64,000 nt of DNA from Escherichia coli (GCF_003334765.1 NZ_QOWT01000001.1), one strand, 5' to 3'; shown: positions 27,517-43,120, numbered from the stretch's first letter. Program-made: numbers and translations. Notes: a model not told the origin generated them from the letters alone.

Positions 27517-29163
27517 TTATTCAATCTCTTCACAGACATCCTGCGTTAAACGCCGCATAATATCTTTTCTTAACAAAAACTTTTGTATTTTACCTGAGGT
27601 AGTTCGCGGTAGTTTTTCGATTACCACGATATGTTCAGGATATTTATATTTTGCGACCCGTTTACGGCTAAAAAAAGCCACTACCTCTTCCAGCGATAAT
27701 GAATGATGCGGCGCTTTCAGCACGACATAAGCGCATGATCGTTCACCTAAACGTTCATCGGACATTGCAACCACACAGGCATCGTGAATTTTAGGATGCT
27801 GCAATAAAATATCTTCCACTTCACGGCTGCTAATATTTTCGCCGCCGCGGACAATAATATCTTTTTTGCGTCCGGTAATTTTTATATAGCCAGCCTCATC
27901 CATACGGCAGAGATCGCCGCTGTAATACCAGCCTTCTTCATCCAGGGCACGGGCGGTTAATTCAGGTTCATCAAAATACCCCATAAACACATTGGGGCCA
28001 CGCGAGGCTTCTTCACCTTCGCAACCTGGCGGTAAGGTCTTGCGTGCGTCATCGACCACTTTAATCTCTACACCTGCGGCAGCGTAACCATCGGTGTGCA
28101 TAAAGCGCGACAAAGGATCATCGAGATTCACCACCGCATGCGGCGAACTTTCTGTGGAACCATAAACACTTAATAATTTAATGCCGCGCTGCTGGCATTC
28201 ACGCGCCACTTTTTTGGGGATTGTGGTTCCGCCGCAAAGAAAGAAACGCAGCGCTGAAAGGTCCGCGGGTTGTTTCTCTAGTACATTCAAAAGATCATAG
28301 ACAAACGGCGTTGCGCCGAGCATACAGGTGCAACGCTGCTGCTCAAGCAGCGCGAGACACGCATCAGGAGTGAAAATATCTAACAACACGCTGCGAGCGC
28401 CAATTAAGAATGGTGCCGTTACGCCATGCAGAAAGCCCGTTGCGTGACCAAGTGGCGCAGGCATCATAAAGACATCCTGCCAGGTCAGATTCAGTCGCGC
28501 GCAATAAGCCCGCTCACTGGCGAGAATATTGTTATGCGTTAGCATCACGCCCTTTGGCAGACCCTCGGTTCCGGAGGTAAACAGCACCGCAGCTAATTCA
28601 TCGCCGTGGGTCGTTATCGCCGTGGTCAGTGAGGTATTGTCGGCGATAATCTGACTTAATGAGAGGGAAGAGGTGGCGGGAGCCAGTTTGTCCACGCCGA
28701 CAATTTGTTGTAGTTGTGGAAGCTGATTTTGCAGCGGCAGGATTAAATCTACCGGACGCGTTTGTTTAAACAACGTCGGTGCAAAGAACATTTTTGCCTG
28801 ACACTTATTGAGCACCCACACCAGTTCTGCTTCCCGCCAGGAAGGCAACAGCGGCACGGAAACTGCACCGATTTTCAGGCAGGCAAGATAGATAACGGTA
28901 AATTCACACCAGCCAGGCAGTTGAAATGCGATGCGATCGCCTGATTCAATACCCTTCGCTAACATCCAGTTTGCCAGACAGCTCGCGGCGTGATCGAGCG
29001 CGCTATAGGTGTACGATGCACCATGATTATCGACCACGGCAATTTTGTCTGGCATCGCACGAGCGGTCTGCTGCCAGTAATCGGCCAGCGAAGCATCGCC
29101 CCATAACCCTTGCTGACGATACGCCGCACGACGTTGTTCGTTAAACGTTAATGTCACTTTCAT
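27517..29163 (-). CDS. fadK: Short-chain acyl-CoA synthetase (AMP-forming), anaerobic
   Basis: ORF track 27517..29217; start at ATG 29163 (MKVTLTFNEQRRAAY...), 548 aa; AMP-binding motif TSGTEGLPKG. Confidence 0.93.
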   Translation of the reverse strand: MKVTLTFNEQRRAAYRQQGLWGDASLADYWQQTARAMPDKIAVVDNHGASYTYSALDHAASCLANWMLAKGIESGDRIAFQLPGWCEFTVIYLACLKIGAVSVPLLPSWREAELVWVLNKCQAKMFFAPTLFKQTRPVDLILPLQNQLPQLQQIVGVDKLAPATSSLSLSQIIADNTSLTTAITTHGDELAAVLFTSGTEGLPKGVMLTHNNILASERAYCARLNLTWQDVFMMPAPLGHATGFLHGVTAPFLIGARSVLLDIFTPDACLALLEQQRCTCMLGATPFVYDLLNVLEKQPADLSALRFFLCGGTTIPKKVARECQQRGIKLLSVYGSTESSPHAVVNLDDPLSRFMHTDGYAAAGVEIKVVDDARKTLPPGCEGEEASRGPNVFMGYFDEPELTARALDEEGWYYSGDLCRMDEAGYIKITGRKKDIIVRGGENISSREVEDILLQHPKIHDACVVAMSDERLGERSCAYVVLKAPHHSLSLEEVVAFFSRKRVAKYKYPEHIVVIEKLPRTTSGKIQKFLLRKDIMRRLTQDVCEEIE

Positions 29164-29219: not shown

Positions 29220-29513
29220 TTAGCCGTAGCGAAAATCAATACCGAAGGTGCCTGCGGGATATTGCCACTGTTCGAGAATAGTGTTACCGCACAGCACCCG
29301 ACAGGTGCCGCACTCCAGACAACCGGCGGAATCAAAATGAATGTTTCCTGCGTCATCCTGCTTATAAAGTCCGGCAGGGCAGGCTTTCATTAATTTATGG
29401 AATTCATTGATATCGGGATTTTCCGCCAGAATGATATGCGGGTGGCCCTCATCAACATGGAATTTATTGACGCCTAATTTGATGTCGACGTTAACCGTAG
29501 CGTTCTGGCTCAT
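29220..29513 (-). CDS. ydiT: FixX-like ferredoxin
   Basis: 97-aa ORF with CxxCxxC cluster (CLECGTCRVLC). Confidence 0.9.
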   Translation of the reverse strand: MSQNATVNVDIKLGVNKFHVDEGHPHIILAENPDINEFHKLMKACPAGLYKQDDAGNIHFDSAGCLECGTCRVLCGNTILEQWQYPAGTFGIDFRYG

Positions 29514-30799
29514 AGCGCGGTTGCTCCCTTAATGCCATCTTTCAGCAAGTTGATCAGCCCAATTTTCTTCGCATGTCCCATGATCATTTTTCGTACCGGC
29601 TGGTTTGGTTTGCCGTCGATGGTGAACATCTCGTTCATGATGTCGGCTACCATTCGTGGGTATTGGCTAAACAGGCGCGGGTTTTCCATCAGCGCCGGGA
29701 TCTTGCGAAAATGCTGCATATCACGCATGACGCAGCTTTGTTCCAGCTCACGTTTGTATTGCGCCAGACTGCTGGCGGAGAAATCCGCGCGTTCTTTGGC
29801 GGCGATCACCGTTGTGGCGGCAGCCTGAGCCGATGCAATGGCTAAATCCATGCCGCGGACCGTAAAACCCAAATTCAGGCAGAAGCCTGCGGCGTCACCA
29901 ACGATCATCACGCCCTCGTTAACCAGTTGCGGCACCATTGCCAGACCGCCTTCCGGCACCATATGCGCGGAATATTCAAGCAGTTTGCCGCCGCTAATCA
30001 GCGGGCGAATGGCGGGGTGTTGTTTAAAATCTTCCAGCATTTGCGGCACGCTTTTTTGCGCATGGGCGATATCACCCAATCCACAAACCAGCCCCAAGGA
30101 TATGGAATCCTTGTTGGTATAGAGAAATCCCCCGCCCATCAGGCCGTCAGAAGGGGAACCGGCAAACAGCCAGGCGGCACCTTCCTCGCCCGTAATATTA
30201 AAGCGATCGTTGATCTGTTCTGGTGTGAGGCCAATAACCTCTTTAACACCAACAGCGTAATGATGCGGATCGGAAGCGGGAACCATTCCCAGCGAGCGGC
30301 CAAGCATCGAGTTAACGCCATCAGCCAGAATCACCACATTCGCTTCGAGAATATCATCCCCAGCCTGCACGCCAGTGACCTTGTTTCCTTCACGAACCAG
30401 CGCGTCGACGCGAACGCCTGGGATAAACTGCGCGCCCGCCTGCTCGGCTTGTTCCATCAACCACGGGTCCAGACGATTACGCAATACGGTATAAGATGCG
30501 TGTTGCGGAACATCTGGCTGCTCGCGGTGAAAATCGAGGGTAACGGCGCTTTCTTCGGTTAAGAAGGAGATTTTCTCGCGTGTGACCTTGCGTTCTACCG
30601 GCGCTGATACTGCAAAGCCTGGAATGATTGCTTCAAGTGTGTGGGCATAAAGACGCCCGCCGGTCATGTTTTTACATCCGGCACTGTCGCCGCGTTCTAT
30701 CACCAGGACATCCAGCCCGGCTCGTGCCATGACCAGTGCGGCAACGCTACCAGCAACGCCCGCACCGACCACAATGGCATCAAATTTGTCATCCGACAT
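29510..30799 (-). CDS. ydiS: FixC-like FAD-dependent ETF-quinone oxidoreductase
   Basis: 429-aa ORF; N-terminal GAGVAG dinucleotide-binding motif; 4-nt overlap with ydiT. Confidence 0.92.
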   Translation of the reverse strand: MSDDKFDAIVVGAGVAGSVAALVMARAGLDVLVIERGDSAGCKNMTGGRLYAHTLEAIIPGFAVSAPVERKVTREKISFLTEESAVTLDFHREQPDVPQHASYTVLRNRLDPWLMEQAEQAGAQFIPGVRVDALVREGNKVTGVQAGDDILEANVVILADGVNSMLGRSLGMVPASDPHHYAVGVKEVIGLTPEQINDRFNITGEEGAAWLFAGSPSDGLMGGGFLYTNKDSISLGLVCGLGDIAHAQKSVPQMLEDFKQHPAIRPLISGGKLLEYSAHMVPEGGLAMVPQLVNEGVMIVGDAAGFCLNLGFTVRGMDLAIASAQAAATTVIAAKERADFSASSLAQYKRELEQSCVMRDMQHFRKIPALMENPRLFSQYPRMVADIMNEMFTIDGKPNQPVRKMIMGHAKKIGLINLLKDGIKGATAL

Positions 30800-30854
30800 G
30801 CGTTATGCTCCCTTCCCGCTGCGTTTACAGCGGGAGATGTGGTTGAAAGGGGAA

Positions 30855-31793
30855 TTAGCGGCTCAACTGGCTAATCAGGGCAGGGACGACTTTGTAGATA
30901 TCGCCCACCAGACCGTAGTCGGCATAGTTGAAGATTGGCGCATTTTTATCTTTATTGATGGCGACAATCACTTTTGCGCCGTTGCCGCCAACCATATGCT
31001 GGATCTGCCCGGAGATCCCCAGCGTCAGGTAGAGATCGGATTTCAGCAACACGCCGGAGACACCGATATAACGTTCACGCTCCATCCAGTTCTCGCCTTC
31101 GGCAATTGGACGTGAACAGCCGACTTCAGCATTCAGCACCGCCGCCAGTTCGTGGACCATTTTTAGGTCATCCTGCGCCGCCAGTCCACGACCGACGCCA
31201 ACCACACGTTTTGCTTTGCTCAGGTCCACGCTGCTTGCGGCTTTCGCACGGCGTTCGCGACAGAGAATTTCATGACGCGGAGCAACATAAGGTACCGTTT
31301 CTGTCGGGCACTGATGAGAGGTATCACTGGTGCACGGTTCCTGAACACCGGGTGCAAGGGTAATGATCGCCAGCGGGCTGTTGATCTTTTCCTGAGCGAA
31401 CGCTAACCCGCCATACATCCGGTGTTCGGCGCAAATGTGACCATCGACAATATCCACCGCCGTGGCATCGTTCACCAGCGCCGCATTCAGTTGCACACTT
31501 AACCGTGCTGCCAGCGCTTTACCACGTTTCGTCGCGGCCAACAGCAACATAGCGGGGTGTTTATCTTTCAGCAGGGCAGCAATGCTTTCGGCGTAATTTT
31601 CAGTGCGTTGCAGCGCGTCGTTTTGCGCAAGAACATAAAGACATTTTGGACCATAAGGCATAACTGCCTGCGCCTGGTCGGTATTTTGTACAATGGCATA
31701 CACCTGTTGGCCCCATTGCTGAGCGCCGCCAAACAGTTCAGCATAACGTTCAGGATTATCGCTAAAGACCCAGACGCTGTTTAATTGACTCAT
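30855..31793 (-). CDS. ydiR: Electron-transfer flavoprotein alpha-subunit homologue (FixB-like)
   Basis: 312-aa ORF. Confidence 0.92.
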   Translation of the reverse strand: MSQLNSVWVFSDNPERYAELFGGAQQWGQQVYAIVQNTDQAQAVMPYGPKCLYVLAQNDALQRTENYAESIAALLKDKHPAMLLLAATKRGKALAARLSVQLNAALVNDATAVDIVDGHICAEHRMYGGLAFAQEKINSPLAIITLAPGVQEPCTSDTSHQCPTETVPYVAPRHEILCRERRAKAASSVDLSKAKRVVGVGRGLAAQDDLKMVHELAAVLNAEVGCSRPIAEGENWMERERYIGVSGVLLKSDLYLTLGISGQIQHMVGGNGAKVIVAINKDKNAPIFNYADYGLVGDIYKVVPALISQLSR

Positions 31794-31812
31794 CGTTTCT
31801 TCTCCGTAGGCT

Positions 31813-32577
31813 TCAGTTCAGGGCTTTCTTCAGATGTTCCGCCAGCTCGGCAATGGCCTCCGGCGAATCGTTATCGATAATGATGTGCTTACGTTCTGTT
31901 TGCGGCGGTACGCGAATGCCGACCAGTTCAGCAAGTGGCGCGCTCTGGCTCCAGTCAATATCACTTGCCTGCCACTGATTTACCGGTTTTTTACCCGCGC
32001 CGAGAATGGCTTTCATCGAAGGAATGCGTGGCACGTTAATATCGGAGGTGACGCAGAGCACGGCTGGAACAGAGAGTTCAATAACTTCAACATCATCTTC
32101 AAGCGTGCGTTCAATCACCAGTGTATTGCCCTGACGCTGAATAGCACTCACTGCATTAATCACCGGAAGTTGCAGAATTTCTCCGACCAGCAAGCCAACC
32201 TGCTGGGCATAAAGGTCGCCGGAACCTTCACCAAAGATCAGTAAATCGAAGCCGATCTTTTCAATTGCTGCCGCCAGCGCTTTTGCGGTATCGAGAGGCA
32301 GTGCATGTTCAAGTTGCGCATCCTGCACCAAATACAGGCTGTGCGGCCCGCGGGATAGCACGTCTTTGCGCACTTTCGAGTTCTGCAACAATGAGCCGCC
32401 AACGGTCAGCGCGGCTATCTCATCGTCATCTGTTGCGAGCTGGCTTGCAGCTTCAATGGCATTGAGATCGAACTGGCTGATTTTGGCGTCGGCATTGTCG
32501 AAATTCAGGGTGTATTCTGGAGTGACAACAATGTCCTGTTCTTCAGGCACCAGCTTAAAGCAGGTTATTATTTTCAT
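31813..32577 (-). CDS. ydiQ: Electron-transfer flavoprotein beta-subunit homologue (FixA-like)
   Basis: ORF track 31813..32676; start at ATG 32577 (MKIITCFKLVPEEQD...), 254 aa. Confidence 0.92.
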   Translation of the reverse strand: MKIITCFKLVPEEQDIVVTPEYTLNFDNADAKISQFDLNAIEAASQLATDDDEIAALTVGGSLLQNSKVRKDVLSRGPHSLYLVQDAQLEHALPLDTAKALAAAIEKIGFDLLIFGEGSGDLYAQQVGLLVGEILQLPVINAVSAIQRQGNTLVIERTLEDDVEVIELSVPAVLCVTSDINVPRIPSMKAILGAGKKPVNQWQASDIDWSQSAPLAELVGIRVPPQTERKHIIIDNDSPEAIAELAEHLKKALN

Positions 32578-32892: not shown

Positions 32893-33804
32893 ATGTATCA
32901 ACGCTGTTTTGATAACGCCAGTGAAACGCTGTTTGTCGCCGGTAAAACGCCACGGCTTTCACGTTTTGCATTTAGCGATGATCCAAAATGGGAGTCCGGA
33001 CATCACGTTCATGACAATGAAACCGAGTTGATTTACGTCAAGAAAGGGGTTGCAAGGTTTACCATCGATTCTTCGTTATATGTCGCACATGCGGATGACA
33101 TTGTGGTGATAGAACGCGGCAGGCTGCATGCGGTGGCCTCTGACGTTAACGATCCGGCAACGACGTGTACCTGTGCGCTGTACGGCTTTCAGTTTCAGGG
33201 GGCTGAGGAAAATCAGCTACTGCAACCGCATTCTTGTCCGGTAATTGCCGCGGGGCAGGGAAAAGAAGTCATAAAAACCTTATTTAATGAGCTAAGTGTG
33301 ATTTTGCCGCAAAGTAAAAATAGCCAAACATCTTCGTTATGGGATGCATTTGCCTATACGTTAGCCATTCTTTACTACGAAAATTTTAAAAATGCTTATC
33401 GTTCGGAGCAGGGGTATATTAAAAAAGATGTTCTGATAAAAGATATTCTTTTCTATCTGAATAATAATTATCGCGAAAAAATCACTTTAGAACAGTTATC
33501 GAAAAAATTTCGTGCCAGCGTCAGTTATATTTGCCATGAATTTACCAAAGAGTATCGTATTTCCCCTATTAACTATGTTATTCAACGGCGTATGACGGAA
33601 GCAAAATGGTCACTCACTAATACTGAATTATCACAGGCAGAGATCTCCTGGCGTGTGGGTTATGAAAATGTCGATCACTTTGCCAAACTGTTTTTGCGCC
33701 ATGTCGGTTGTTCGCCCAGCGATTACCGTAGACAATTTAAAAACTGTTTTGCGGAACAAGAAATCCTATCTGAATTTCCTCAACCGGTAAGTCTTGTTGG
33801 ATAA
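32893..33804 (+). CDS. ydiP: AraC-family transcriptional regulator (cupin N-domain plus HTH)
   Basis: 303-aa ORF; C-terminal AraC HTH (ISWRVGYENVDHFAKLFLRHVGCSPSDYRR). Confidence 0.9.
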   Translation: MYQRCFDNASETLFVAGKTPRLSRFAFSDDPKWESGHHVHDNETELIYVKKGVARFTIDSSLYVAHADDIVVIERGRLHAVASDVNDPATTCTCALYGFQFQGAEENQLLQPHSCPVIAAGQGKEVIKTLFNELSVILPQSKNSQTSSLWDAFAYTLAILYYENFKNAYRSEQGYIKKDVLIKDILFYLNNNYREKITLEQLSKKFRASVSYICHEFTKEYRISPINYVIQRRMTEAKWSLTNTELSQAEISWRVGYENVDHFAKLFLRHVGCSPSDYRRQFKNCFAEQEILSEFPQPVSLVG

Positions 33805-33846: not shown

Positions 33847-34998
33847 TTATTTGTTCTGATAGTCTTTCAGGATCTGCCGACCTGCTACGTAAATCATAAT
33901 TTCGTCTGTACCGCCGCCGATACGTTCACAACGGACATCACGCCAGAAGCGGGAGACGCGCGCCTCATCGGTATAGCCCAGACCGCCCATGATTTGAATC
34001 GCATCATCAATGACTTCCATTGCGGTACGTGCACAGTACAGTTTTGCCAGCGCCGCGCTGGTGCGCAGTGACTGATGCTGATCGGCTTGCCATGCCACTT
34101 TCAGCACCATGTTGCGCATGTTGTCGATCTTAATCGCCATCAGCGCCAGTTTTTCCTGGATCATCTGGTTATGACCAATGGGCTTACCAAAAGCGATACG
34201 TTGGTTGGCATAGCGGGCGGCATCTTCAAAGGCGCATTCGGCAAAGCCGGTGCTGCGCGCGGCGTTGATCAGGCGCTCCATCTCAAAGTTGTACATCACA
34301 TTGAGGAAACCCATTCCTTCTTCGCCCACCATGTCGCTCTCTTCAACCTCCACGTTGTCGAGATAGACTTCGCAGGTGCTGAGCATATGCCAGCCGATTT
34401 TATGCAGCGGGTTAATCTTAATGCCGGGCTTACTGGAGTCGACCCACCACAGGGTGAAGGCTTTTTTGGGATCTTTCGGTTGCGGATCGCGCGCCAGCAC
34501 CAGCATATACGGGTACTCTTTCGCACCGGTAATAAAGGTTTTTTGTCCGTTGATGTAGACCTTGCCGTTTTTACGCGTGTAAGTGGTAGTGGCACTGTTG
34601 TTATCTGAGCCAGCACCTGGTTCCGTCAACGCCAGGGCATAGGCGGGATCACCCGTTTCCAGGGTGCTCTCTGCCGTTTTACGTAGCTGCTCTGCAGAAC
34701 CGAAACGGCGCATACTGTGAATACATTGACCGTTGGTAATTAAAAATGCCGGAGCACCGCATTTTGACACTTCCATCAGCGCCAGCATTTGGGTGACGTA
34801 ATCCGCAGGGATACCACCAAATTCTTCCGGCACGCCAAGCATGGAAATACCGTTATCCGCCAGCGCCCGCATAAACTCACGCGGATATGTCCCGTTTTGA
34901 TCGCAGGTGCGGAAATACTCTTCCGGAAAGTTAGTCGTAATCAGTTCGCGAATACTGGCCAGCAGCAGTTCTTGTTCTTCAGTTAAAGAAAAATCCAT
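33847..34998 (-). CDS. ydiO: Acyl-CoA dehydrogenase
   Basis: ORF track 33847..35052; start at ATG 34998 (MDFSLTEEQELL...), 383 aa. Confidence 0.92.
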   Translation of the reverse strand: MDFSLTEEQELLLASIRELITTNFPEEYFRTCDQNGTYPREFMRALADNGISMLGVPEEFGGIPADYVTQMLALMEVSKCGAPAFLITNGQCIHSMRRFGSAEQLRKTAESTLETGDPAYALALTEPGAGSDNNSATTTYTRKNGKVYINGQKTFITGAKEYPYMLVLARDPQPKDPKKAFTLWWVDSSKPGIKINPLHKIGWHMLSTCEVYLDNVEVEESDMVGEEGMGFLNVMYNFEMERLINAARSTGFAECAFEDAARYANQRIAFGKPIGHNQMIQEKLALMAIKIDNMRNMVLKVAWQADQHQSLRTSAALAKLYCARTAMEVIDDAIQIMGGLGYTDEARVSRFWRDVRCERIGGGTDEIMIYVAGRQILKDYQNK

Positions 34999-35011
34999 CA
35001 TTATACTCCTG

Positions 35012-36607
35012 TTAATGAGCCGCTTCAGGCAGGACAAAACCCATCGCCGCATCGATAAATAATCTTTCGTCCATCAGTTTGAGTTCTGGCGAAATCACTG
35101 GGGTGAAATCCATTTTGTCGAGAATATCTTTTTGTAAATCGACGCCAGGGGCGATTTCGATTAAATGCAGGCCGTCTTCTTTCAGCGTGAATACTGCGCG
35201 CTCAGTGATATAACGAACATCCAGCCCTCGCTCGAGAGCGATTTTTCCGCTGAAAGTAATTTCCGGTAGTTCCCGAATAAATTTCTTCACCCGTCCTTCC
35301 TGGACGATATTTAATTTGCCGTCGGTAATTTCTGTTTTTAAACTGCCCGCAGTTAATGTGCCGCAGAAAATGATTTTCTTCGAAGTGGCACTGATATCAA
35401 TAAATCCACCGGTGCCCATGATTTTACCATTGAATTTATGCACGCCGACGTTACCGTGCTGGTCGACTTCAGCAAAACTCAAATAACAAACATCCAGACC
35501 GCCACCGTGATAAAAATCAAACTGGGACGTCATATCCAGAATGGCACGGGTATTCACGTTCGCGCCAAAGGCGATCCCCTGTGAAGTAATTCCGCCAATC
35601 GGACCTGTTTCTACCGTCAGAATAAAGTCATCAGCACAACCTTCTTCTCGGGCGACCAGGCCAATGCCGTCAGCAATACCGACGCCGACATTCCCCACCG
35701 CGCCTTTACGCATTTCGAATAATGCGCGCCGCGCAACTAATTTACGTTGGTTTAGGGGCAGGCTAAGTTTGGTACTGTCATCAAGGGTGAAGTCACCAGA
35801 AATAAAGCGGTTAACCGGTGCACCGCCATACAGTTGGGTTTGATCCGGATCGACCACCACAATATCCACCAGATAACCCGGAATACGGACAGATTTAGGA
35901 TGCAGCGTGGCTTTCTTAACCATTTTCTGCACCTGCATCATCACAATACCGCCGTTATTGTGCACCGCCTGGGCAATAACCAATGCGTCGAGATACATCA
36001 CCTCATCTTCAAAAGTGGCGTAGCCTTCACTGTCGCAGGTGGTAGCGCGAATGAAGGCAATATCTGGCGCAATCGCTTTGTAATAGAGATATTCTTTGTT
36101 ATCAAACTCGACCAGTTTAATCAGGTCTTCTTTAGTGACTTCATTCAGTTTGCCGCCTTGCTGGCGTGGATCGACAAATGTCCCGATGCCAATATCACTA
36201 ATAATACCAGGCTGGTGGGCTGCGGCGGCGCGTAAGGTTTGTGTAAGTACACCTTGTGGGTAGTTATAAGCAATAATTTTATTTTGTTCTGCGAGTTCAG
36301 AAATACGCGGCGATTGTCCCCAGTGACCACATAATGCCCATTTCACCAGACCTTCTTGCGCCAGAGGACTAATACCACGGTCGGCGCGATCGCCAAGCCC
36401 TGTTGGACTAATAATCGATAAATTACGTGGTGTTTGAGTCTGTTTATATTTATCAGCAAGAGCAGTAATTAACGTGGTGGCTTCCAGAATACCGCCTCCA
36501 GCGCCTAACACACAAAGTGTTGCTTCGTCGGGAATATAATTCACCGCTTCCTGTGCCGACAGGACCGGCACTCGTCCATTAATACGAGGTGGTTTTACAG
36601 GTTTCAT
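35012..36607 (-). CDS. ydiF: Family I CoA-transferase (fused alpha/beta; acetate/short-chain acyl-CoA)
   Basis: 531-aa ORF. Confidence 0.92.
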   Translation of the reverse strand: MKPVKPPRINGRVPVLSAQEAVNYIPDEATLCVLGAGGGILEATTLITALADKYKQTQTPRNLSIISPTGLGDRADRGISPLAQEGLVKWALCGHWGQSPRISELAEQNKIIAYNYPQGVLTQTLRAAAAHQPGIISDIGIGTFVDPRQQGGKLNEVTKEDLIKLVEFDNKEYLYYKAIAPDIAFIRATTCDSEGYATFEDEVMYLDALVIAQAVHNNGGIVMMQVQKMVKKATLHPKSVRIPGYLVDIVVVDPDQTQLYGGAPVNRFISGDFTLDDSTKLSLPLNQRKLVARRALFEMRKGAVGNVGVGIADGIGLVAREEGCADDFILTVETGPIGGITSQGIAFGANVNTRAILDMTSQFDFYHGGGLDVCYLSFAEVDQHGNVGVHKFNGKIMGTGGFIDISATSKKIIFCGTLTAGSLKTEITDGKLNIVQEGRVKKFIRELPEITFSGKIALERGLDVRYITERAVFTLKEDGLHLIEIAPGVDLQKDILDKMDFTPVISPELKLMDERLFIDAAMGFVLPEAAH

Positions 36608-36749
36608 TGTTAATTCCTGATTCAGATGTGATTTTCCCTACGCCAAATGGAGAATTAGCGCACAGAGACTCACGAAATATTTTTATTAAATACGATTGAA
36701 TATATTTTTTAGTTCGGCGGGGAGGGTGTTCCCGCCGAAATATTATTGC

Positions 36750-37508
36750 TTATGCCTGGTGTAAAATAGTTAATACCGTGCGCAAATCATTTACCGAGAT
36801 TTGCCCTGGCGCAGACGCTTTTTTTACCGCACCAAAAGTTGCCGCCGAGCCAAATACTTCACCAGCCAGACGAGAAATTACGCCAGTTTTTGCCATCGAC
36901 ATCGTGATAATTGGACGATCGGCATACTGCTCCTGCATCTCCAGGGTCGCGGCAAGCAACGTCAGCACATCGCTGGTACTTTGCGGCATCAGCGCAATCT
37001 TAGGAATATCGGCGTCGAAGGATTGCATTTTGCGCAGACGGGCAATGATTTCTTCGGCTTCCGGCGTTTTATGGAAGTCATGGTTGGACATGACTACTTT
37101 CACATCATGCGCGTGGGCGTAGGCGACGGTTTCTTTAACCTGATCATCACCGGTAAATAACTCCAGATCGATCATATCAACCAGGCCGCTGTCGATGGCT
37201 GCACGATTGAGTGCAATATAAGCCTCGGTGGAAATCGCCTGCTCGCCGCCTTCTTTGGCACTGCGGAAGGTAAACAGCAGCGGTTTTTCTGGCATGGTCT
37301 CACGGAGAATTTTTGCTGCCGCCATGACAGACTCCACATTGGAGAGGTCGGCATAGTGGTCCACACGCCATTCCAGAATATCAAAGTCCGCTTCACGATA
37401 GGCGAGAGCTTCGGATTTCACGCTGGCGATATCTTTCGCCATCAGCGAGACGATGATTTTAGGTGCGCCCGTACCAATGACGAGATCTTTTACAGTTACG
37501 GTTTTCAT
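36750..37508 (-). CDS. aroD: Type I 3-dehydroquinate dehydratase
   Basis: 252-aa [30 protein letters not shown]. Confidence 0.97.
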
Positions 37509-37538
37509 TTTTTACCCTTTCTGCACGCGGTCAGCCTG

Positions 37539-38405
37539 TCAGGCACCGAACCCCATGACCTGTTTAACATATTCCAGAGGGAAATCTTTGCCAGTCCATA
37601 ATGTGAACTGTTCAGCCCCTTGCCACAACAACATGCCGTATCCATCAATCGTTTTGCAACCAGCTTGTTGCGCCTGCTGCAATAACTTCGTCATATGCGG
37701 GTTATACACGCATTCAGTGACCAGAAGTCCCGGATGTAACAGACTGATATCATTAACCAATGATTCATTCTCAAGGGGTTTCATACCCACTTTTGTGCCA
37801 TTGGTTAAAATGTCGGCGGAAGCCAGGGCTTCAGCAAAGGCTTGCTGATCGGCGAGATCGGTGACCGTGACGACACAATCGGTGTTTTCATTAACCCGCT
37901 GCGCGAAGGCGAGGGCTTTATCGAAGAACTCATCCCGACGGTTAAAGAGTTTAATTTCTTTTAAACCTTCAATTGCCCCCTGCGCGCCAATTGCCGTTGA
38001 GGCACCACCGGCCCCTAACAGCACCATCGTTTTGCCTTTGATATCAAAACCGCTCTCTTTAATGGCGCGAATATGGCCCGTGCCGTCGGTGTTATAGCCA
38101 CGCAGATAGCCATCATCATTAACGATGGTGTTGATGGCCCCCACCAGTTTGGCAGCTGGTGTTAATTCATCAACATATTCACACGCCAGTTGTTTGTTCG
38201 GCATCGATACACCAGTTCCGCGCATTTTGAGGGCTTTTAATCCTTCAATTGCTCCAGGAAAGCTATCGTTATCCACTTCGAAGGCCATATAGGTAAATGG
38301 CAATCCCGCTTTTTCTAAGGCTTTATTCTGCATTTCGGGCGATAAACTGTGGCGGATAGGATAGGCCATCAACCCAATCAATTCGTATTTTGCGGTAACA
38401 TCCAT
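37539..38405 (-). CDS. ydiB: Quinate/shikimate dehydrogenase (NAD(P))
   Basis: 288-aa ORF; AroE-like fold with GAGGAS Rossmann motif. Confidence 0.95.
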
Positions 38406-38416
38406 AATTAACTCCT

Positions 38417-39682
38417 TTAACCTCTATGCTTAATTGTGTTTAACCGGGTGCAAAATTTACGCTCGCCAAACCGCACATCATTTTCAGGAATAATGAAAAC
38501 GCGGTAATAGCGGATAAAAACAATAATTGCGGTAATCAGGGCCAGCAGCGCGAAAGTAAAATCGAGAACAATGATATATTGCAGGCCGATGTTCGACAGA
38601 TAACCGGTAATCAGTGGAATAACAAAGTTAGCCAGTCCACCCATCATCATATAAATACTGGTGACTTTGGCTTTGCTTTTGGGAAAAAACTCTGACATGA
38701 CCGAAACGCCGAGCTGTAAAATGCCGCCAGCTGCTGAGAAACCGATAACAAAGGCTCCGGCATTGCACACCAGTGGAGAAGGGTACAGGTAGATAATGGC
38801 TGCTGTTATTGTTGCCAGTGCAGAGTTAAATACATTAGCCCAGATGGGCCGGACCATTTTTTTCAGTAGTGCGGCAAAAATAAAGACACAGACCAACGAG
38901 CCCATACTGTAATAAGAGATGGTTTTTAATGCCTCAGCTTCTGACATACCAGCAAAAGCCATCGCATATTTGGGCATCCACACCACAATCACATAAAAGG
39001 TCGAGAATGCGGCTACACCGAACAGTACCGATGAAACACCTTCCAGCCAGACTAACGGTTTGCTGTTCATTTGCGGTAATTCATTAGTTACGCTGGCGTC
39101 CACCAACTGGCTGGGGAATTTGCTTTTCAACAGCATCAGCGTGATCAGTACAAATAGAATACCCGGAATAATCAGCCCATAGCCGTACCAGATATTATTG
39201 AGCAACATATAGCTCACCAGCATTGGGTAGAACATTTGCCCAAATGACACCATCGCTTTAACCAGTATGACCGCCGAACCAGAGGCTTTCGGAAAGCATT
39301 CCATGAGCGCGGGGTAGCCACCCGTATCCAGCGCTGAGTTAGCGATACCTACGCACACTGCCAGACCGTAGGCGAGAGTTAAATTCGGGCAAGCGGGAAT
39401 ACCAAAGAAGAATAGCAGATACATTATTACTGCCATTAATATCACCGCCCGACGACCAAACTTATCGGAGATCACACCGAAGAATAAAATACTGATCAAT
39501 CGCCCCAAACCGATACCGGAAATTAAGTAGGCAATGCCCGCGTTGTCAGTGGAAAACTTTTCCGCCAGAGATGACATATTTTGGGCAAGCGTAATAACAC
39601 TAATGCCGTGCAGGAAGTAGCTGAAGTAAATACAAAGAACAGCCAGGATAAATGGCGTGCTGAAAGCCTTATTTTGAGACAT
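38417..39682 (-). CDS. ydiN: MFS transporter
   Basis: ORF track 38417..39688 begins at GTG; first ATG at 39682 (MSQNKAF...), 421 aa, 12-TM-like. Confidence 0.88.
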
Positions 39683-39908
39683 TTTCACAGCTCCTTGCTG
39701 AAAGATAATTTCGTTACCGTACGTATTGTTCTCCGACGGTTTACATAATTACTATACTGAAGATGATTTTCCCTGGGTACATGGCATAAAGTTTATGTTT
39801 CCAGGAATATTGCATGTCATAGTTTGTTTTTGATCGCGATTTTCCTTAGTTAGCGCAGAAAGAGTTATTTATCCGTAAGATCTTGCATGACCTGAAAAGA
39901 ATATTGCA

Positions 39909-41123
39909 TTACCCACCCGGAGCGACATTTTCCTTTAGCGAGTGATGCCGCGTTTTTTTGCGGCTGCGTAAGCCGATAAACAGTGCCAGTAAAAAACCGA
40001 TGGCAGCGATGGCGGTATCGAACCACATAATATCGGCAATACTTCTTTGGGACAGATGAGCCGTAATCAACGGAATAGTAAAGGTCGCAATACTGCCCGC
40101 ACTGTAATAGATCCCTGTAGCTTTACCTTTAGCGTAAGGGAAACGTTCAGCCATTAACGTCAGGCCAATTTGCACAACACCTCCAGCAGAGGTAAAACCA
40201 ATGACAAAAGCAAATATTATCACCACATAAAATGTGGGATGCAGGCAGACGGTAAACAGAGCAATAAATGAGATAAAGGTGTACAGCATCAGTAATGTTG
40301 TTGGGCGAACGGTATTACGAATGAGTGGAGCGGTAATAAATACACAAAGCAGCGAACCCACGGTGTAGATACTGAGTAGTTTGATCGACATAGTGTATGA
40401 CATGCCTGCAACAAATTGTCCGTACTGTGCCAGCCACTGGCTAACCAGATAAAACGTTGCCATTGAGATATAGCCATATAAGGTATAACTGGCTAAATCG
40501 ATAATTGAACAGCGATGTTCCGTAGAGCTGGTGGTTTTCTTTATGACAGGTAAGCGACGACCCGGATGGGGTGGGAACGTACAACGGTATAAAAACAGAG
40601 CGTTAATAAACATAATGCCTGCAGCAATCATAAAGGACCAACCGAACCACAGTTCAGCCCACACTAACAGGCTAATGATTAGCGGTAATAAAAATTGTCC
40701 GCTGGAAACAAATGCTTTAATTAAAATATTGGCTGTCCCAGGTGAGCGTGGAAAAGCTTCCATCAAACTGGGATAAGTGCCTGCATCGAGAAAACTGTTT
40801 GCCATTCCCGCCAGAAAGCCAAAAACATAAGCGATAATGATGTTATTGGTCTGCAGGATGCCAAAAAAGAAGGCCATATAGCAGCACATCCCGAGCATGA
40901 TAAAAGGGCGGCGACCAAAGCGATCGGATAATAATCCTGCAAAAAGCAAGACACTTAATCGACCAATGCCCAGCGATGAGATAACTATCGAGACACCCGC
41001 GGCATTAGTCTGCCAAAGTGTCTCCAGCGAGGCCATATTCAGGCTCATCAAAAGGACGCCCATACCATGCACCAGGTAATTAAAATACAACCCAAGTGCG
41101 GTAGGGAAATAGGGATTTTTCAT
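39909..41123 (-). CDS. ydiM: MFS transporter
   Basis: 404-aa polytopic ORF. Confidence 0.9.
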   Translation of the reverse strand: MKNPYFPTALGLYFNYLVHGMGVLLMSLNMASLETLWQTNAAGVSIVISSLGIGRLSVLLFAGLLSDRFGRRPFIMLGMCCYMAFFFGILQTNNIIIAYVFGFLAGMANSFLDAGTYPSLMEAFPRSPGTANILIKAFVSSGQFLLPLIISLLVWAELWFGWSFMIAAGIMFINALFLYRCTFPPHPGRRLPVIKKTTSSTEHRCSIIDLASYTLYGYISMATFYLVSQWLAQYGQFVAGMSYTMSIKLLSIYTVGSLLCVFITAPLIRNTVRPTTLLMLYTFISFIALFTVCLHPTFYVVIIFAFVIGFTSAGGVVQIGLTLMAERFPYAKGKATGIYYSAGSIATFTIPLITAHLSQRSIADIMWFDTAIAAIGFLLALFIGLRSRKKTRHHSLKENVAPGG

Positions 41124-41222
41124 AGGTTCTACTTAGCAAAGGTGCTTTAAAAAGTGAAGCGATGTTGTGTCAGCATCCGTTCATTATTGTTGTAACAACG
41201 ACAATTCCTTTCTGTGGAAAAA

Positions 41223-41579
41223 TTAACAAAGCCGCTCCAGATCGTGTGCATATAATTCAGCAGCTACCGATTGATAGATCTTCCAGTCAATAAAATTGCC
41301 ATCAGGGTAGACTCGTTGAAATGCGGTTAAGTCGGGGAAAAAACGCATGGTGTTGTTGCCGATGCGGTTATTTATTTTCTCTATGATGGCATGAAGATGT
41401 TTTTTTCTTTGCTGACGCATAGCCAACAGTTGCTCGACTACACGATCAGGAATGGCACACTTGCCATTTTCCCACTGACGCCAGCTTTCACTGTCACCGG
41501 TCTGGGCAATCCAGGTCGCGCATTCATCAATAGTCATGGCAAAAATATGGCGGAGTGCCTGGAGTTCATAAGCGTTCAT
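41223..41579 (-). CDS. ydiL: Uncharacterised protein YdiL
   Basis: ORF track 41223..41606; start at ATG 41579 (MNAYELQALRHIF...), 118 aa. Confidence 0.8.
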   Translation of the reverse strand: MNAYELQALRHIFAMTIDECATWIAQTGDSESWRQWENGKCAIPDRVVEQLLAMRQQRKKHLHAIIEKINNRIGNNTMRFFPDLTAFQRVYPDGNFIDWKIYQSVAAELYAHDLERLC

Positions 41580-41716
41580 CGTGTAATGGCTGCATGAAAT
41601 AAACAATAAAATATAAATAACATTATCAGCCTGCTGACGGCTTGAAGAGAGTCACAGTATCTTGTGCAACATTATTGGAAAGAGTGAGGGGCGAGGTAGC
41701 GAAGCGGAAAAATGTT

Positions 41717-41822
41717 AAAAAAAAGCCCATCGTGGGAGATGGGCAAAGACTACACACAGCAATTCGTTGTTTCACTCAGGGGATTTCCATGCTTATAAAT
41801 CAATATGTTGATTTATAACCGT
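41717..41822 (-). ncRNA. rprA: RprA small regulatory RNA (RpoS translational activator)
   Basis: Reverse complement reads ACGGTTATAAATCAACATATTGATTTATAAGCATGGAAATCCCCTGAGTGAAACAACGAATTGCTGTGTGTAGTCTTTGCCCATCTCCCACGATGGGCTTTTTTTT, recognised as RprA including its terminator. Confidence 0.9.
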
Positions 41823-41875
41823 GAGCTAATAGTAGGCATACGGACTTTTTGCGTCGATCAGATTCGTCTCATTAG
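41823..41875 (-). promoter_or_regulatory. rprA promoter region (RcsB-dependent in K-12)
   Basis: Position immediately upstream of the rprA 5' end; -10-like tactat on minus strand. Confidence 0.5.
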
Positions 41876-42007
41876 TTTAAAAACTGTAAAGAATTTGCGA
41901 CAGGTACTACCAGCTGAATGGCGGTAAGCAGGAAAATATGGGGAAGAGCAAGCAAATATCAATTAGCGGTGGTTAACAATCAGGCGGCAGAGCCGCCTGA
42001 TGAGAAA

Positions 42008-43120
42008 TTACTTATTCGGTTTCTCGATTTCGCCAAGTTCTTCGAGAATTTCTTCCGGTTGGTCCGTCGGCGGCGGGACTTCTTCCACCCACGCGGCAAA
42101 CAGACGCCAGGAAACGGCTAACAGAACCGGACCAATAAACAGACCGATCATCCCGAAAGCAATCAAACCACCAATAACGCCAGAGAGAATCAGGATCAGC
42201 GGTAAATCGGCACCCATGCGAATTAACATTGGGCGGATGACGTTATCCAGCGTGCCAACCACACCGCTCCACACTAACAATACCGTTCCCCAGGTGGTAT
42301 CGCCAGTCCAGTAGAGCCAGATAATCGCCGGAATCAGTACCGGCAACGGGCCAAGCTGGACAAGGCAGGAGAGGATCATTAACACCGTTAGCAACGTTGC
42401 ATAAGGTACGCCGGATACGGCGAGGCCGATACCGCCAAGCACTGCCTGTACTAACGCCGTCACCACCACACCCAGCGCCACCGCGCGGATAGCCTGTGCC
42501 GCCAGCAGCACGGCGGCATCTCCGCGAACGCCTGCCAGACGGGTTGCAAAATGGCGAATGCCTTGTGCCACCTGTTCACCGCGCCAGTACAGCAGGGCAC
42601 TGAAGAGAAGCATCAGCGCACAATGCACCATAAAGCGCCCGATATGCGCCGCCTGCCCAACGAACCAGGTGGTGGTGGTGCCAATATAAGGGCGGACTTT
42701 CGCCATGATCGCCGTCCCCCCCATATCCAGCAAGTTGTGCCAGCCTGCATACAGCTTCGCGCCAATCACCGGAATGGTATTAAGCCACGCCAGATCGGGT
42801 AACGTCATGTCACCGCTGGAAATGGCTTTAATTAGCGGGCCGCTGCCGTCGACGATACTGTTAACCAGCAAAGCAATAGGGATGATAAACACCATCACTA
42901 ATAACAGCGTCATCACCAGAACGGCGAGAGAGCGGCGGCCAAACATGATCTTTTGCAAACGTAACAATACCGGCCAGGTGGCGATAACCACCGTACCGGC
43001 CCATGCAAAGCCGAGAATAAAGGGTTGAACAATCCACAGACATGCCACAATCATGATGGCTAAAAACAGCACCGAAAGCAGAATTTGTGCGACATCCCTG
43101 GGCTGACGAACATTTACCAT
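42008..43120 (-). CDS. ydiK: AI-2E/UPF0118-family membrane transporter
   Basis: 370-aa polytopic ORF; SD AGGTGA upstream of ATG. Confidence 0.9.
   Translation of the reverse strand: MVNVRQPRDVAQILLSVLFLAIMIVACLWIVQPFILGFAWAGTVVIATWPVLLRLQKIMFGRRSLAVLVMTLLLVMVFIIPIALLVNSIVDGSGPLIKAISSGDMTLPDLAWLNTIPVIGAKLYAGWHNLLDMGGTAIMAKVRPYIGTTTTWFVGQAAHIGRFMVHCALMLLFSALLYWRGEQVAQGIRHFATRLAGVRGDAAVLLAAQAIRAVALGVVVTALVQAVLGGIGLAVSGVPYATLLTVLMILSCLVQLGPLPVLIPAIIWLYWTGDTTWGTVLLVWSGVVGTLDNVIRPMLIRMGADLPLILILSGVIGGLIAFGMIGLFIGPVLLAVSWRLFAAWVEEVPPPTDQPEEILEELGEIEKPNK

Follow-up and report, generated by a model that had tools for sequence, protein, structure and literature searches.

Two transporters, a quinate/shikimate dehydrogenase and a dehydroquinase as the possible front end of a reductive hydroaromatic pathway in Escherichia coli

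Several clusters for quinate and shikimate have been described, including qui-pca in Acinetobacter, qsuABCD with the LysR regulator QsuR in Corynebacterium, QuiC1 in Pseudomonas and the qui operons of Listeria. Escherichia coli itself uses caiTABCDE and fixABCX to reduce crotonobetainyl-coenzyme A (CoA) as an anaerobic electron sink, and lactobacilli, reportedly since the work of Whiting and Coggins in the 1970s, use quinate and shikimate as hydrogen acceptors and form dihydro derivatives. With shikimate as electron acceptor, the growth of Sutterella wadsworthensis and Eggerthella lenta improves, and both reduce its enoate to hydroshikimate, 3,4,5-trihydroxycyclohexanecarboxylate (Little et al., bioRxiv 10.1101/2022.12.26.521950). 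In this study, we analyzed a 64-kb stretch of E. coli DNA (the window) and, within it, the region 36750-41123 on the minus strand, which carries genes for two transporters of the major facilitator superfamily (MFS), ydiM and ydiN, followed by ydiB, encoding a quinate/shikimate dehydrogenase, and aroD, encoding a type I 3-dehydroquinate dehydratase (dehydroquinase). Comparison with other bacteria suggests that these four genes may be the uptake and interconversion front end of a reductive quinate/shikimate pathway encoded by ydiL-ydiM-ydiN-ydiB-aroD-ydiF-ydiO-ydiP-ydiQRST-fadK, a reading to which we give a probability of roughly 0.45.

An alignment of YdiN, YdiM and more remote homologues served as the query for a scan that covered one genome per species. 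The scan returned 80 loci, and homologues of the window's proteins were located in 75 loci from other species. There were 41 Enterobacterales loci and 29 Firmicute loci (Lactobacillaceae, Sporolactobacillus, Megasphaera and other Negativicutes). Across the 75 loci, the core of dehydrogenase, transporter and type I dehydroquinase genes lies nearly always beside a system that reduces carbon-carbon double bonds (C=C), and this system takes two forms. One is CoA-dependent and combines a CoA-transferase, an acyl-CoA dehydrogenase and electron-transfer flavoprotein (ETF) and FixCX proteins (ydiF-ydiO-ydiQRST-fadK); it is present in E. coli and Sutterella. The other is a flavoenzyme of the 2-enoate-reductase type, found in Klebsiella, Erwinia, Megasphaera, Sporolactobacillus and some lactobacilli.

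The gene order ydiL-ydiM-ydiN-ydiB-aroD-ydiF-ydiO-<ydiP-ydiQ-ydiR-ydiS is constant in every genus of Enterobacterales in which the block was found, namely Escherichia, Citrobacter, Kosakonia, Yersinia, Serratia, Dickeya, Brenneria, Symbiopectobacterium, Prodigiosinella and Intestinirhabdus. YdiF and YdiO are both encoded in 39 of the 41 Enterobacterales loci, the other two being a contig that is cut short and a locus whose matches are fragments. The betaproteobacteria S. seckii and S. wadsworthensis carry fadK-ydiS-ydiR-ydiQ <> ydiN-ydiB-aroD-ydiF-ydiO, at 43-84% identity and without ydiM. As Sutterella carries both halves together, we conclude that the block moved as a unit. On a metagenomic contig (L084), the two hydroaromatic enzymes even lie amid the electron-transfer genes, all on one strand, in the order MFS-CoA_trans-ACAD-ETFb-ETFa-YdiB-AroD-FixC-FixX. 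Its MFS protein is 69% identical to YdiN, its CoA-transferase 70% to YdiF, and its YdiB and AroD homologues share 77% and 69% identity with the E. coli proteins; the family cutoffs for YdiO, YdiB and YdiS are exceeded, and a YdiP-like AraC gene and a second transporter gene lie upstream. YdiF homologues with 65-76% identity adjoin shikimate-dehydrogenase-family or dehydroquinase genes in other genomes. In one of these (L085), a close YdiF homologue adjoins shikimate-dehydrogenase-family genes and a YdiO homologue. In another (L086 10001-14082, from a 33% GC genome), the gene of a 65% YdiF homologue comes before those of a MaoC-type dehydratase and a type II dehydroquinase, then a small open reading frame and an ApbA/ketopantoate-reductase-like gene, the whole set behind a LysR regulator, possibly another CoA-linked hydroaromatic pathway with different chemistry. 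In other bacteria, the YdiN type of transporter stands immediately upstream of the CoA form of the block; YdiN-type homologues adjoin a CoA-transferase gene in L084, in the S. wadsworthensis locus (L047) and in L087, where the transporter gene overlaps that of the YdiF homologue.

The 29 Firmicute loci were retrieved by the transporter alone. Nevertheless, a gene of the quinate/shikimate-dehydrogenase family adjoins the transporter gene in all 29, and a type I dehydroquinase gene is present in 28; hence, the linkage of transporter and enzymes exceeds chance. Twelve of these loci also contain, on the strand of the core and at a distance of 18-363 bp from it, a reductase gene of about 665-690 codons. 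In two Liquorilactobacillus species this gene lies downstream of the dehydrogenase gene, in most loci upstream. Its product is an Fe-S flavoenzyme of the FadH/BaiCD/2-enoate-reductase family (match to FadH, 1PS9, at 2.7e-64) that keeps the CxxCxxxC...C motif, and it stays below the cutoff of every named equivalog (469 bits on the BaiCD model, cutoff 825). In a thirteenth locus, from Sporolactobacillus (L075), the core is surrounded instead by genes for an acyl-CoA dehydrogenase, ETF, FixC and a FadK-like ligase. Separately, the locus of Secundilactobacillus odoratitofui (L058 915-11927) has three dehydrogenase paralogs, three YdiM-type transporters and one dehydroquinase, a sign that some lactobacilli may handle several hydroaromatic substrates or intermediates. 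Klebsiella was considered as the source of locus L006, but a G+C content of 35% argues against that genus, and the locus was taken as Firmicute-like.

In Klebsiella aerogenes and Erwinia, ydiN and the CoA system are missing from the site, which has instead an enoate reductase, the dehydrogenase, a YdiM-type transporter, the dehydroquinase and a divergent LysR gene; here, too, the reductase gene shares the strand of the core. No enoate reductase was found by tblastn in the 64-kb window. The core transporters of the Firmicute, Klebsiella and Erwinia loci all match YdiM best, so that the transporter types split with the reducing systems: the CoA form is accompanied by the YdiN type, the enoate-reductase form by the YdiM type. 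Because two non-homologous C=C reductases replace each other beside the same core, we consider that C=C reduction belongs to the pathway.

In E. coli, the annotated order over 28.7 kb is ppsA, fadK, ydiT, ydiS, ydiR, ydiQ, ydiP, ydiO, ydiF, aroD, ydiB, ydiN, ydiM, ydiL, rprA, ydiK and ydiJ. Transcription of the four genes runs from ydiM (39909-41123, 404 aa) through ydiN (38417-39682 with the RefSeq start) and ydiB (37539-38405, 288 aa) to aroD (36750-37508, 252 aa), with gaps of about 226, 11 and 30 bp and a further 142 bp between aroD and ydiF. The mechanical open reading frame of ydiN, 38417-39688, begins at a GTG two codons before the RefSeq start and encodes 423 instead of 421 aa. The initial annotation had placed minus-strand aroD and ydiB directly downstream of the paralogous MFS genes ydiN and ydiM, and open reading frames and family scores confirm every detail of this arrangement. 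AroD passes TIGR01093/PF01487 with 292 bits (cutoff 139), has E86, H143 and the Schiff-base lysine K170 in place and matches the solved Salmonella AroD structures. YdiB passes the equivalog NF009390 for NAD(P)-dependent quinate/shikimate dehydrogenase with 670 bits (cutoff 349), aligns from end to end with the known structures of E. coli YdiB (PDB 1NPD/1O9B; 646 bits) and contains the catalytic K71 and D107 and the GAGGA motif. Published biochemistry showed that the E. coli enzyme acts on both quinate and shikimate with NAD+ or NADP+ (summarized in PMC4585142).

YdiM and YdiN belong to PF07690 (MFS_1), as recorded for clusters holding these sequences, and a crude hydropathy scan found 10-11 hydrophobic segments against the approximately 12 helices of MFS proteins. 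They share 36% identity over 385 residues (E 7e-86), hence the term paralogous is correct. Both score far below the cutoff of 418 bits for the aromatic acid:H+ symporter family TIGR00895 (YdiN, 41.5 bits; YdiM, 39 bits); TCDB nonetheless places them at 2.A.1.15.12 and.13 (PMC10588857). No solved structure related to YdiN was detectable by sequence. A megablast search with 36600-41300 (4.7 kb) gave a match in all 5426 complete E. coli genomes, covering at least 80% of the query in 5318 of them, with ydiM, ydiN, ydiB and aroD as the RefSeq names. Coverage was below 80% in about 2% of the genomes; the locus is disrupted by IS5-like ISKpn26 insertions in strain HZ13, and strain MB50 matches aroD and part of ydiB only. 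One contig encodes a 668-aa protein in which YdiN (99% identity) is joined to shikimate-dehydrogenase domains; this is probably no natural fusion but the product of read-through or a frameshift across the 11 bp between ydiN and ydiB.

The functional unit appears to be larger than these four genes and to include ydiF, ydiO, ydiP, ydiQRST and fadK as well. The ydiF gene (35012-36607, minus strand) encodes a family I (Pct-like) acyl-CoA:carboxylate CoA-transferase, according to NCBIfam and its RefSeq name, and would form the back end of the route proposed below. The ydiO gene (33847-34998, minus strand) encodes a CaiA-like acyl-CoA dehydrogenase/enoyl-CoA reductase of 383 aa. Its mechanical open reading frame (33847-35052, 401 aa) overlaps ydiF, and the annotated start leaves a 13-bp ydiF-ydiO gap that is kept across genera. 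YdiO reaches 787 bits on NF008997 (cutoff 537), 452 bits on the crotonobetainyl-CoA dehydrogenase (CaiA) model and 186 bits on that of cyclohexane-1-carbonyl-CoA dehydrogenase. The products of ydiQ, ydiR, ydiS and ydiT (29220-32577, minus strand) are paralogs of FixA, FixB, FixC and FixX, which we take to be an electron-transfer flavoprotein, an ETF-quinone-oxidoreductase-like protein and a ferredoxin-like protein. They exceed the cutoffs of NF008998, NF008884 and NF007450 and those of the FixA and FixC models; the models that come next for YdiR and YdiT, FixB and FixX, are not passed (321 bits, cutoff 549, and 144 bits, cutoff 166, respectively). YdiO and the ETF subunits also match models of the Clostridium acryloyl-CoA reductase complex. 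The acyl-CoA ligase gene fadK (ydiD; 27517-29163, minus strand; NF004758, 1087 bits) has the cyclohexanecarboxylate-CoA ligase TIGR03208 as its second-best named family (417 bits, below cutoff). The matches of FadK and YdiO to alicyclic acyl-CoA families are weak hints, read from sequence, at alicyclic substrates. A CaiA-like dehydrogenase, FixA/B/C/X-type proteins, a CoA ligase and a CoA-transferase, that is, a cai/fix-like set, are thus found in one block.

Inside the block, ydiP (32893-33804, plus strand; RefSeq annotation) encodes an AraC-family regulator that is kept in 36 of the 41 Enterobacterales loci and has AraC homologues in L084 (45%) and S. seckii (L044, 50%). At the other end, ydiL (41223-41579, minus strand; RefSeq annotation) encodes a small protein of the Aca2/YdiL family (PF08965) without an NCBIfam match. 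It lies directly upstream of ydiM in all Enterobacterales loci that reach that far (L012, L041, L042 and the degraded L080 do not), and in Erwinia a PF08965 ydiL gene (L089 6365-6721) sits directly upstream of the enoate reductase gene. YdiL may be a small DNA-binding regulator of the module.

How could these proteins act together? Apart from the enzyme identities of YdiB and AroD, we infer all steps of the following route. YdiN and/or YdiM would move quinate, shikimate or 3-dehydroshikimate across the membrane. YdiB would oxidize quinate to 3-dehydroquinate, AroD would convert this to 3-dehydroshikimate, and YdiB or AroE would form shikimate. The conversion of quinate to shikimate would be redox-neutral overall and yield an alpha,beta-unsaturated cyclohexene carboxylate; since it needs no net redox change, the pairing of a dual-specificity dehydrogenase with a dehydroquinase makes sense. 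3-Dehydroshikimate is, in addition, an enone. YdiF would then load the acid onto CoA, with FadK providing ATP-dependent priming, and YdiO would reduce the ring C=C of the enoyl-CoA with electrons delivered via YdiQR and YdiS/T, as CaiA and FixABCX do with crotonobetainyl-CoA. Passing of the CoA to a further substrate molecule would free hydroshikimate, which would then leave the cell, perhaps through the second transporter. The hydroaromatic acid would thus serve as an anaerobic electron sink or acceptor and not as a carbon source, and AroD, which is also the housekeeping biosynthetic dehydroquinase, would continue to serve aromatic biosynthesis. We propose, somewhat more tentatively than the front-end role of the four genes, that E. 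coli uses such a CoA-dependent pathway to take up plant quinate and shikimate in the gut, convert quinate to shikimate and reduce the double bond of the ring, so that the acid acts as an anaerobic electron sink or as a respiratory acceptor, with an enoate-reductase analogue in Klebsiella, Erwinia, Megasphaera, Sporolactobacillus and some lactobacilli.

The short ydiN-ydiB and ydiB-aroD gaps and a scan that found no terminator-like site between the three genes fit a single ydiN-ydiB-aroD transcript, for which co-induction has been reported in the literature. Ten nucleotides past the aroD stop codon lies a terminator-like, GC-rich hairpin (36713-36739; fold -17.7 kcal/mol, z -4.3), with an A-run after the stem on the aroD strand, which may act as a partial terminator between aroD and ydiF. 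In the terminator scan of 36400-42100, this hairpin and the RprA terminator were the only notable sites, and the promoter scan of the same region gave fewer promoter-like sites than shuffled sequence. Matches to the FNR consensus (49 sites against 39.2 ± 5.5 expected from shuffles) showed no clear excess and no convincing intergenic site; those to the CRP consensus (22 against 29 expected) showed no excess and no convincing site in the relevant intergenic regions. A search against Rfam found RprA alone, a small RNA at 41715-41822 on the minus strand between ydiK and ydiL (RF00034, 118.5 bits, gathering score 70), whose terminator is a GC hairpin with a T-run at 41744-41725.

The ydiM-ydiN intergenic region (39683-39908) is the site of a LysR gene in related genera. 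In Yersinia, Serratia, Dickeya, Brenneria, Symbiopectobacterium and Prodigiosinella, a gene for a 300-aa LysR protein stands between ydiM and ydiN, divergent from ydiN (for example L031 8124-9026 and L036 8252-9253). The gap measures 1.6-2.0 kb in the LysR-bearing genera and 226-306 bp in Escherichia, Citrobacter, Kosakonia and Intestinirhabdus. No terminator-like RNA fold was found in 39683-39908, and no LysR remnant or LysR gene of the module's type was found by tblastn in the 64-kb window. The Enterobacterales LysR protein shares 37-49% identity with the LysR protein beside 27 of the 29 Firmicute modules and 63-70% with that of Klebsiella and Erwinia. An orthologous regulator thus travels with the core across phyla, which we count in favor of the proposed reductive pathway.

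A link between these transporters and hydroaromatic enzymes has already been published, in 2006, 2009 and 2023. In a shikimate-producing strain, ydiB, aroD and ydiN were upregulated together under carbon limitation, and YdiN was proposed as a carrier of shikimate or by-products (Johansson and Liden 2006, in the account given by the review PMC4585142). YdiN, YdiL and YdiM were predicted to work with aro genes, and deletion of ydiN or ydiB caused aromatic auxotrophy (Hu et al. 2009, PMC2672614), which could be a polar effect on aroD. Deletion of ydiN increased the shikimate titre 1.3-fold (PMC8788726), and about 75% of YdiM/YdiN homologues adjoin a shikimate-pathway gene (Khalfaoui-Hassani et al. 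2023, PMC10588857). The ydiM gene has also been tied to isoprenol tolerance in published work. The initial annotation had read the four genes as an uptake-plus-conversion module for hydroaromatic compounds, a reasonable but not a new idea. The locus exists as described, and the interpretation is plausible, with support for a part of it; both were in the literature, so that the finding as written is ordinary. The module itself draws support from the linkage kept across phyla, the co-induction, the titre of the ydiN deletion and a cluster in a Telmatospirillum metagenome-assembled genome; the unit is larger than was described, and ydiM is set apart by its 226-bp gap. The description of YdiB as a catabolic type was misleading, as no dehydroshikimate dehydratase or type II dehydroquinase was found in the window by tblastn. 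To our knowledge, E. coli does not grow on quinate or shikimate as carbon source. 

The Telmatospirillum cluster (L002/L050) contains genes for a TetR regulator, a type II dehydroquinase, a shikimate-dehydrogenase-family enzyme, a transporter of the YdiN type (52% identity), a chemoreceptor, a QuiC-like dehydroshikimate dehydratase (811 bits) and an IclR regulator. Judged from its genes, it looks truly catabolic; it supports a hydroaromatic cargo for this transporter type and shows what E. coli lacks. It also lends some weight to the view that the E. coli locus is an incomplete remnant of a catabolic, carbon-source quinate/shikimate pathway of the soil-bacterium type. We regard this as very unlikely. 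A QuiC-like gene within 10 kb, the distance used for judging the presence of reductase and QuiC genes, occurs in none of the 41 Enterobacterales and none of the 29 Firmicute loci, and the block, intact and universal in E. coli, does not show the pattern expected of a remnant in decay. A true catabolic cluster at the E. coli locus was rejected, there being neither QuiC nor type II dehydroquinase in the window. The cargo of the transporters might also have nothing to do with hydroaromatic compounds: YdiM could carry copper or another metal for the bo3 oxidase, or both proteins could act in general solvent or drug efflux, with their position beside ydiB-aroD being historical. Loss of ydiM indeed lowers bo3 quinol oxidase activity and copper uptake (PMC10588857), and the 39-42 bits of both proteins on the aromatic-acid:H+ symporter model would fit. 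This explanation seems quite improbable to us, given the dehydrogenase in 29/29 and the dehydroquinase in 28/29 Firmicute loci, the linkage in Proteobacteria too, and the presence of the transporter type in the bona fide catabolic cluster of Telmatospirillum; the authors of the copper study themselves term the link unclear (PMC10588857).

Alternatively, the four genes could serve salvage or overflow only. YdiN, and perhaps YdiM, would then import or export quinate, shikimate and dehydroshikimate, YdiB and AroD would connect these compounds to the aromatic amino-acid pathway or run backwards to quinate and dehydroshikimate as by-products, and ydiF-fadK would be an unrelated, co-inherited fatty-acid system. 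The published co-induction at carbon limitation, the implication of YdiB in quinate and dehydroshikimate by-products (PMC4585142), the higher titre of the ydiN deletion (PMC8788726), the auxotrophy of the deletion strains (PMC2672614), the frequent proximity of homologues to shikimate-pathway genes (PMC10588857) and the aroD-ydiF hairpin all agree with this. It leaves unexplained, though, why CoA-transferase, acyl-CoA dehydrogenase and ETF genes accompany ydiN-ydiB-aroD in Sutterella and are interleaved with the hydroaromatic genes in L084, and why an enoate reductase substitutes for them in Klebsiella, Erwinia and Firmicutes. Moreover, E. coli already has ShiA as a known MFS importer of shikimate and dehydroshikimate (PMC8788726). 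On balance, we think salvage or overflow alone unlikely. The reductive pathway, for its part, faces several objections. The locus counts overstate the number of independent events because many loci come from related genomes, and 16 of the 29 Firmicute loci, mostly from Lactobacillaceae, have no reductase gene within 10 kb. The stable hairpin divides the aroD and ydiF halves of the block, which may therefore be separate transcripts. The short ydiM-ydiN gap indicates that the E. coli lineage lost the module's dedicated LysR regulator, which may be one reason why no quinate or shikimate phenotype is known in E. coli. The reported effect of ydiM on the bo3 oxidase and copper points elsewhere, as does the assignment of ydiFO, ydiQRST and fadHIJK to anaerobic fatty-acid beta-oxidation, in the summary given by PMC3967523; the NCBI name for FadK is medium-chain fatty-acid-CoA ligase. 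Finally, we found no reported experiment with shikimate or quinate reduction, or with uptake by YdiN or YdiM, in E. coli.

Sutterella offers independent support through its shikimate respiration, as S. wadsworthensis DSM 14016 carries the ydi block. A flavocytochrome-c-family flavin reductase was implicated in E. lenta by its specific induction with shikimate; the shikimate-reducing enzyme of Sutterella was not pinned down, because transcriptomics covered E. lenta and Holdemania only (bioRxiv 10.1101/2022.12.26.521950). Right beside fadK in the S. wadsworthensis locus (L047 19-3283) are genes for a TtrS-like histidine kinase, a TtrR/FixJ-like response regulator and a flavocytochrome-c-family flavin reductase with a Tat signal (477 aa; TIGR01813, 290 bits vs 285). 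This exported reductase could be the shikimate reductase of S. wadsworthensis instead, which would count against a role of the ydi block in the reduction. As it is absent at this position in S. seckii, we hold it as a caveat and not as a part of the system.

The comparative context turns a known linkage into a concrete hypothesis, open to experiment, on a dozen E. coli genes whose functions are poorly understood. YdiB has been without an assigned physiological role ever since its structure was determined, and firm functions are likewise wanting for YdiM, YdiN, YdiF, YdiO, YdiP and YdiQRST; in the open-access literature we found no paper that functionally links ydiO, ydiF, ydiQ or ydiS to shikimate or quinate. 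If the reductive pathway is correct, about ten E. coli y-genes would gain a function, the role of YdiB would be explained and the missing shikimate-reducing system of Sutterella would be found. Common gut Enterobacterales would be connected with the way in which quinate and shikimate from the diet, for example from coffee, fruit and chlorogenic acids, are turned over, and a CoA-dependent route would be added to the use of shikimate as a respiratory acceptor.

Compared with the systems described so far, the locus shares with the qui/qsu clusters a quinate/shikimate dehydrogenase, a dehydroquinase and an MFS transporter in one cluster, often with a LysR regulator. It differs, as do its relatives, in lacking dehydroshikimate dehydratase and the protocatechuate route, in having a type I instead of a type II dehydroquinase and in the C=C-reducing system that takes their place. 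The loci of lactobacilli likewise contain LysR, one to three dehydrogenases, transporters and the dehydroquinase, most of them without a reductase gene within 10 kb. ShiA resembles YdiM and YdiN in being an MFS protein with the same proposed compounds, but it is encoded at a different locus and presumably belongs to a different MFS subfamily. The 2-enoate reductase/FadH/BaiCD family (FMN-FAD-[4Fe-4S]), of which the E. coli locus has no copy, is, by sequence, that of the reductase in Klebsiella, Erwinia, Megasphaera, Sporolactobacillus and Liquorilactobacillus, in which the CxxCxxxC...C motif is conserved. With cai/fix, the ydi block has in common a CoA-transferase, a CaiA-like dehydrogenase acting as enoyl-CoA reductase, electron delivery of the FixABCX type, a CoA ligase and a dedicated transporter. 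However, YdiF is a family I (Pct-like) and not a CaiB-type enzyme, the transporters are MFS proteins and not a BCCT antiporter like CaiT, a CaiD-type hydratase is missing and two hydroaromatic enzymes are attached. The shikimate respiration of E. lenta and S. wadsworthensis, in turn, has the same chemistry as proposed here, the reduction of the shikimate enoate, and differs in that the enzyme implicated in E. lenta is a flavocytochrome-c-family flavin reductase instead of a CoA-dependent system.

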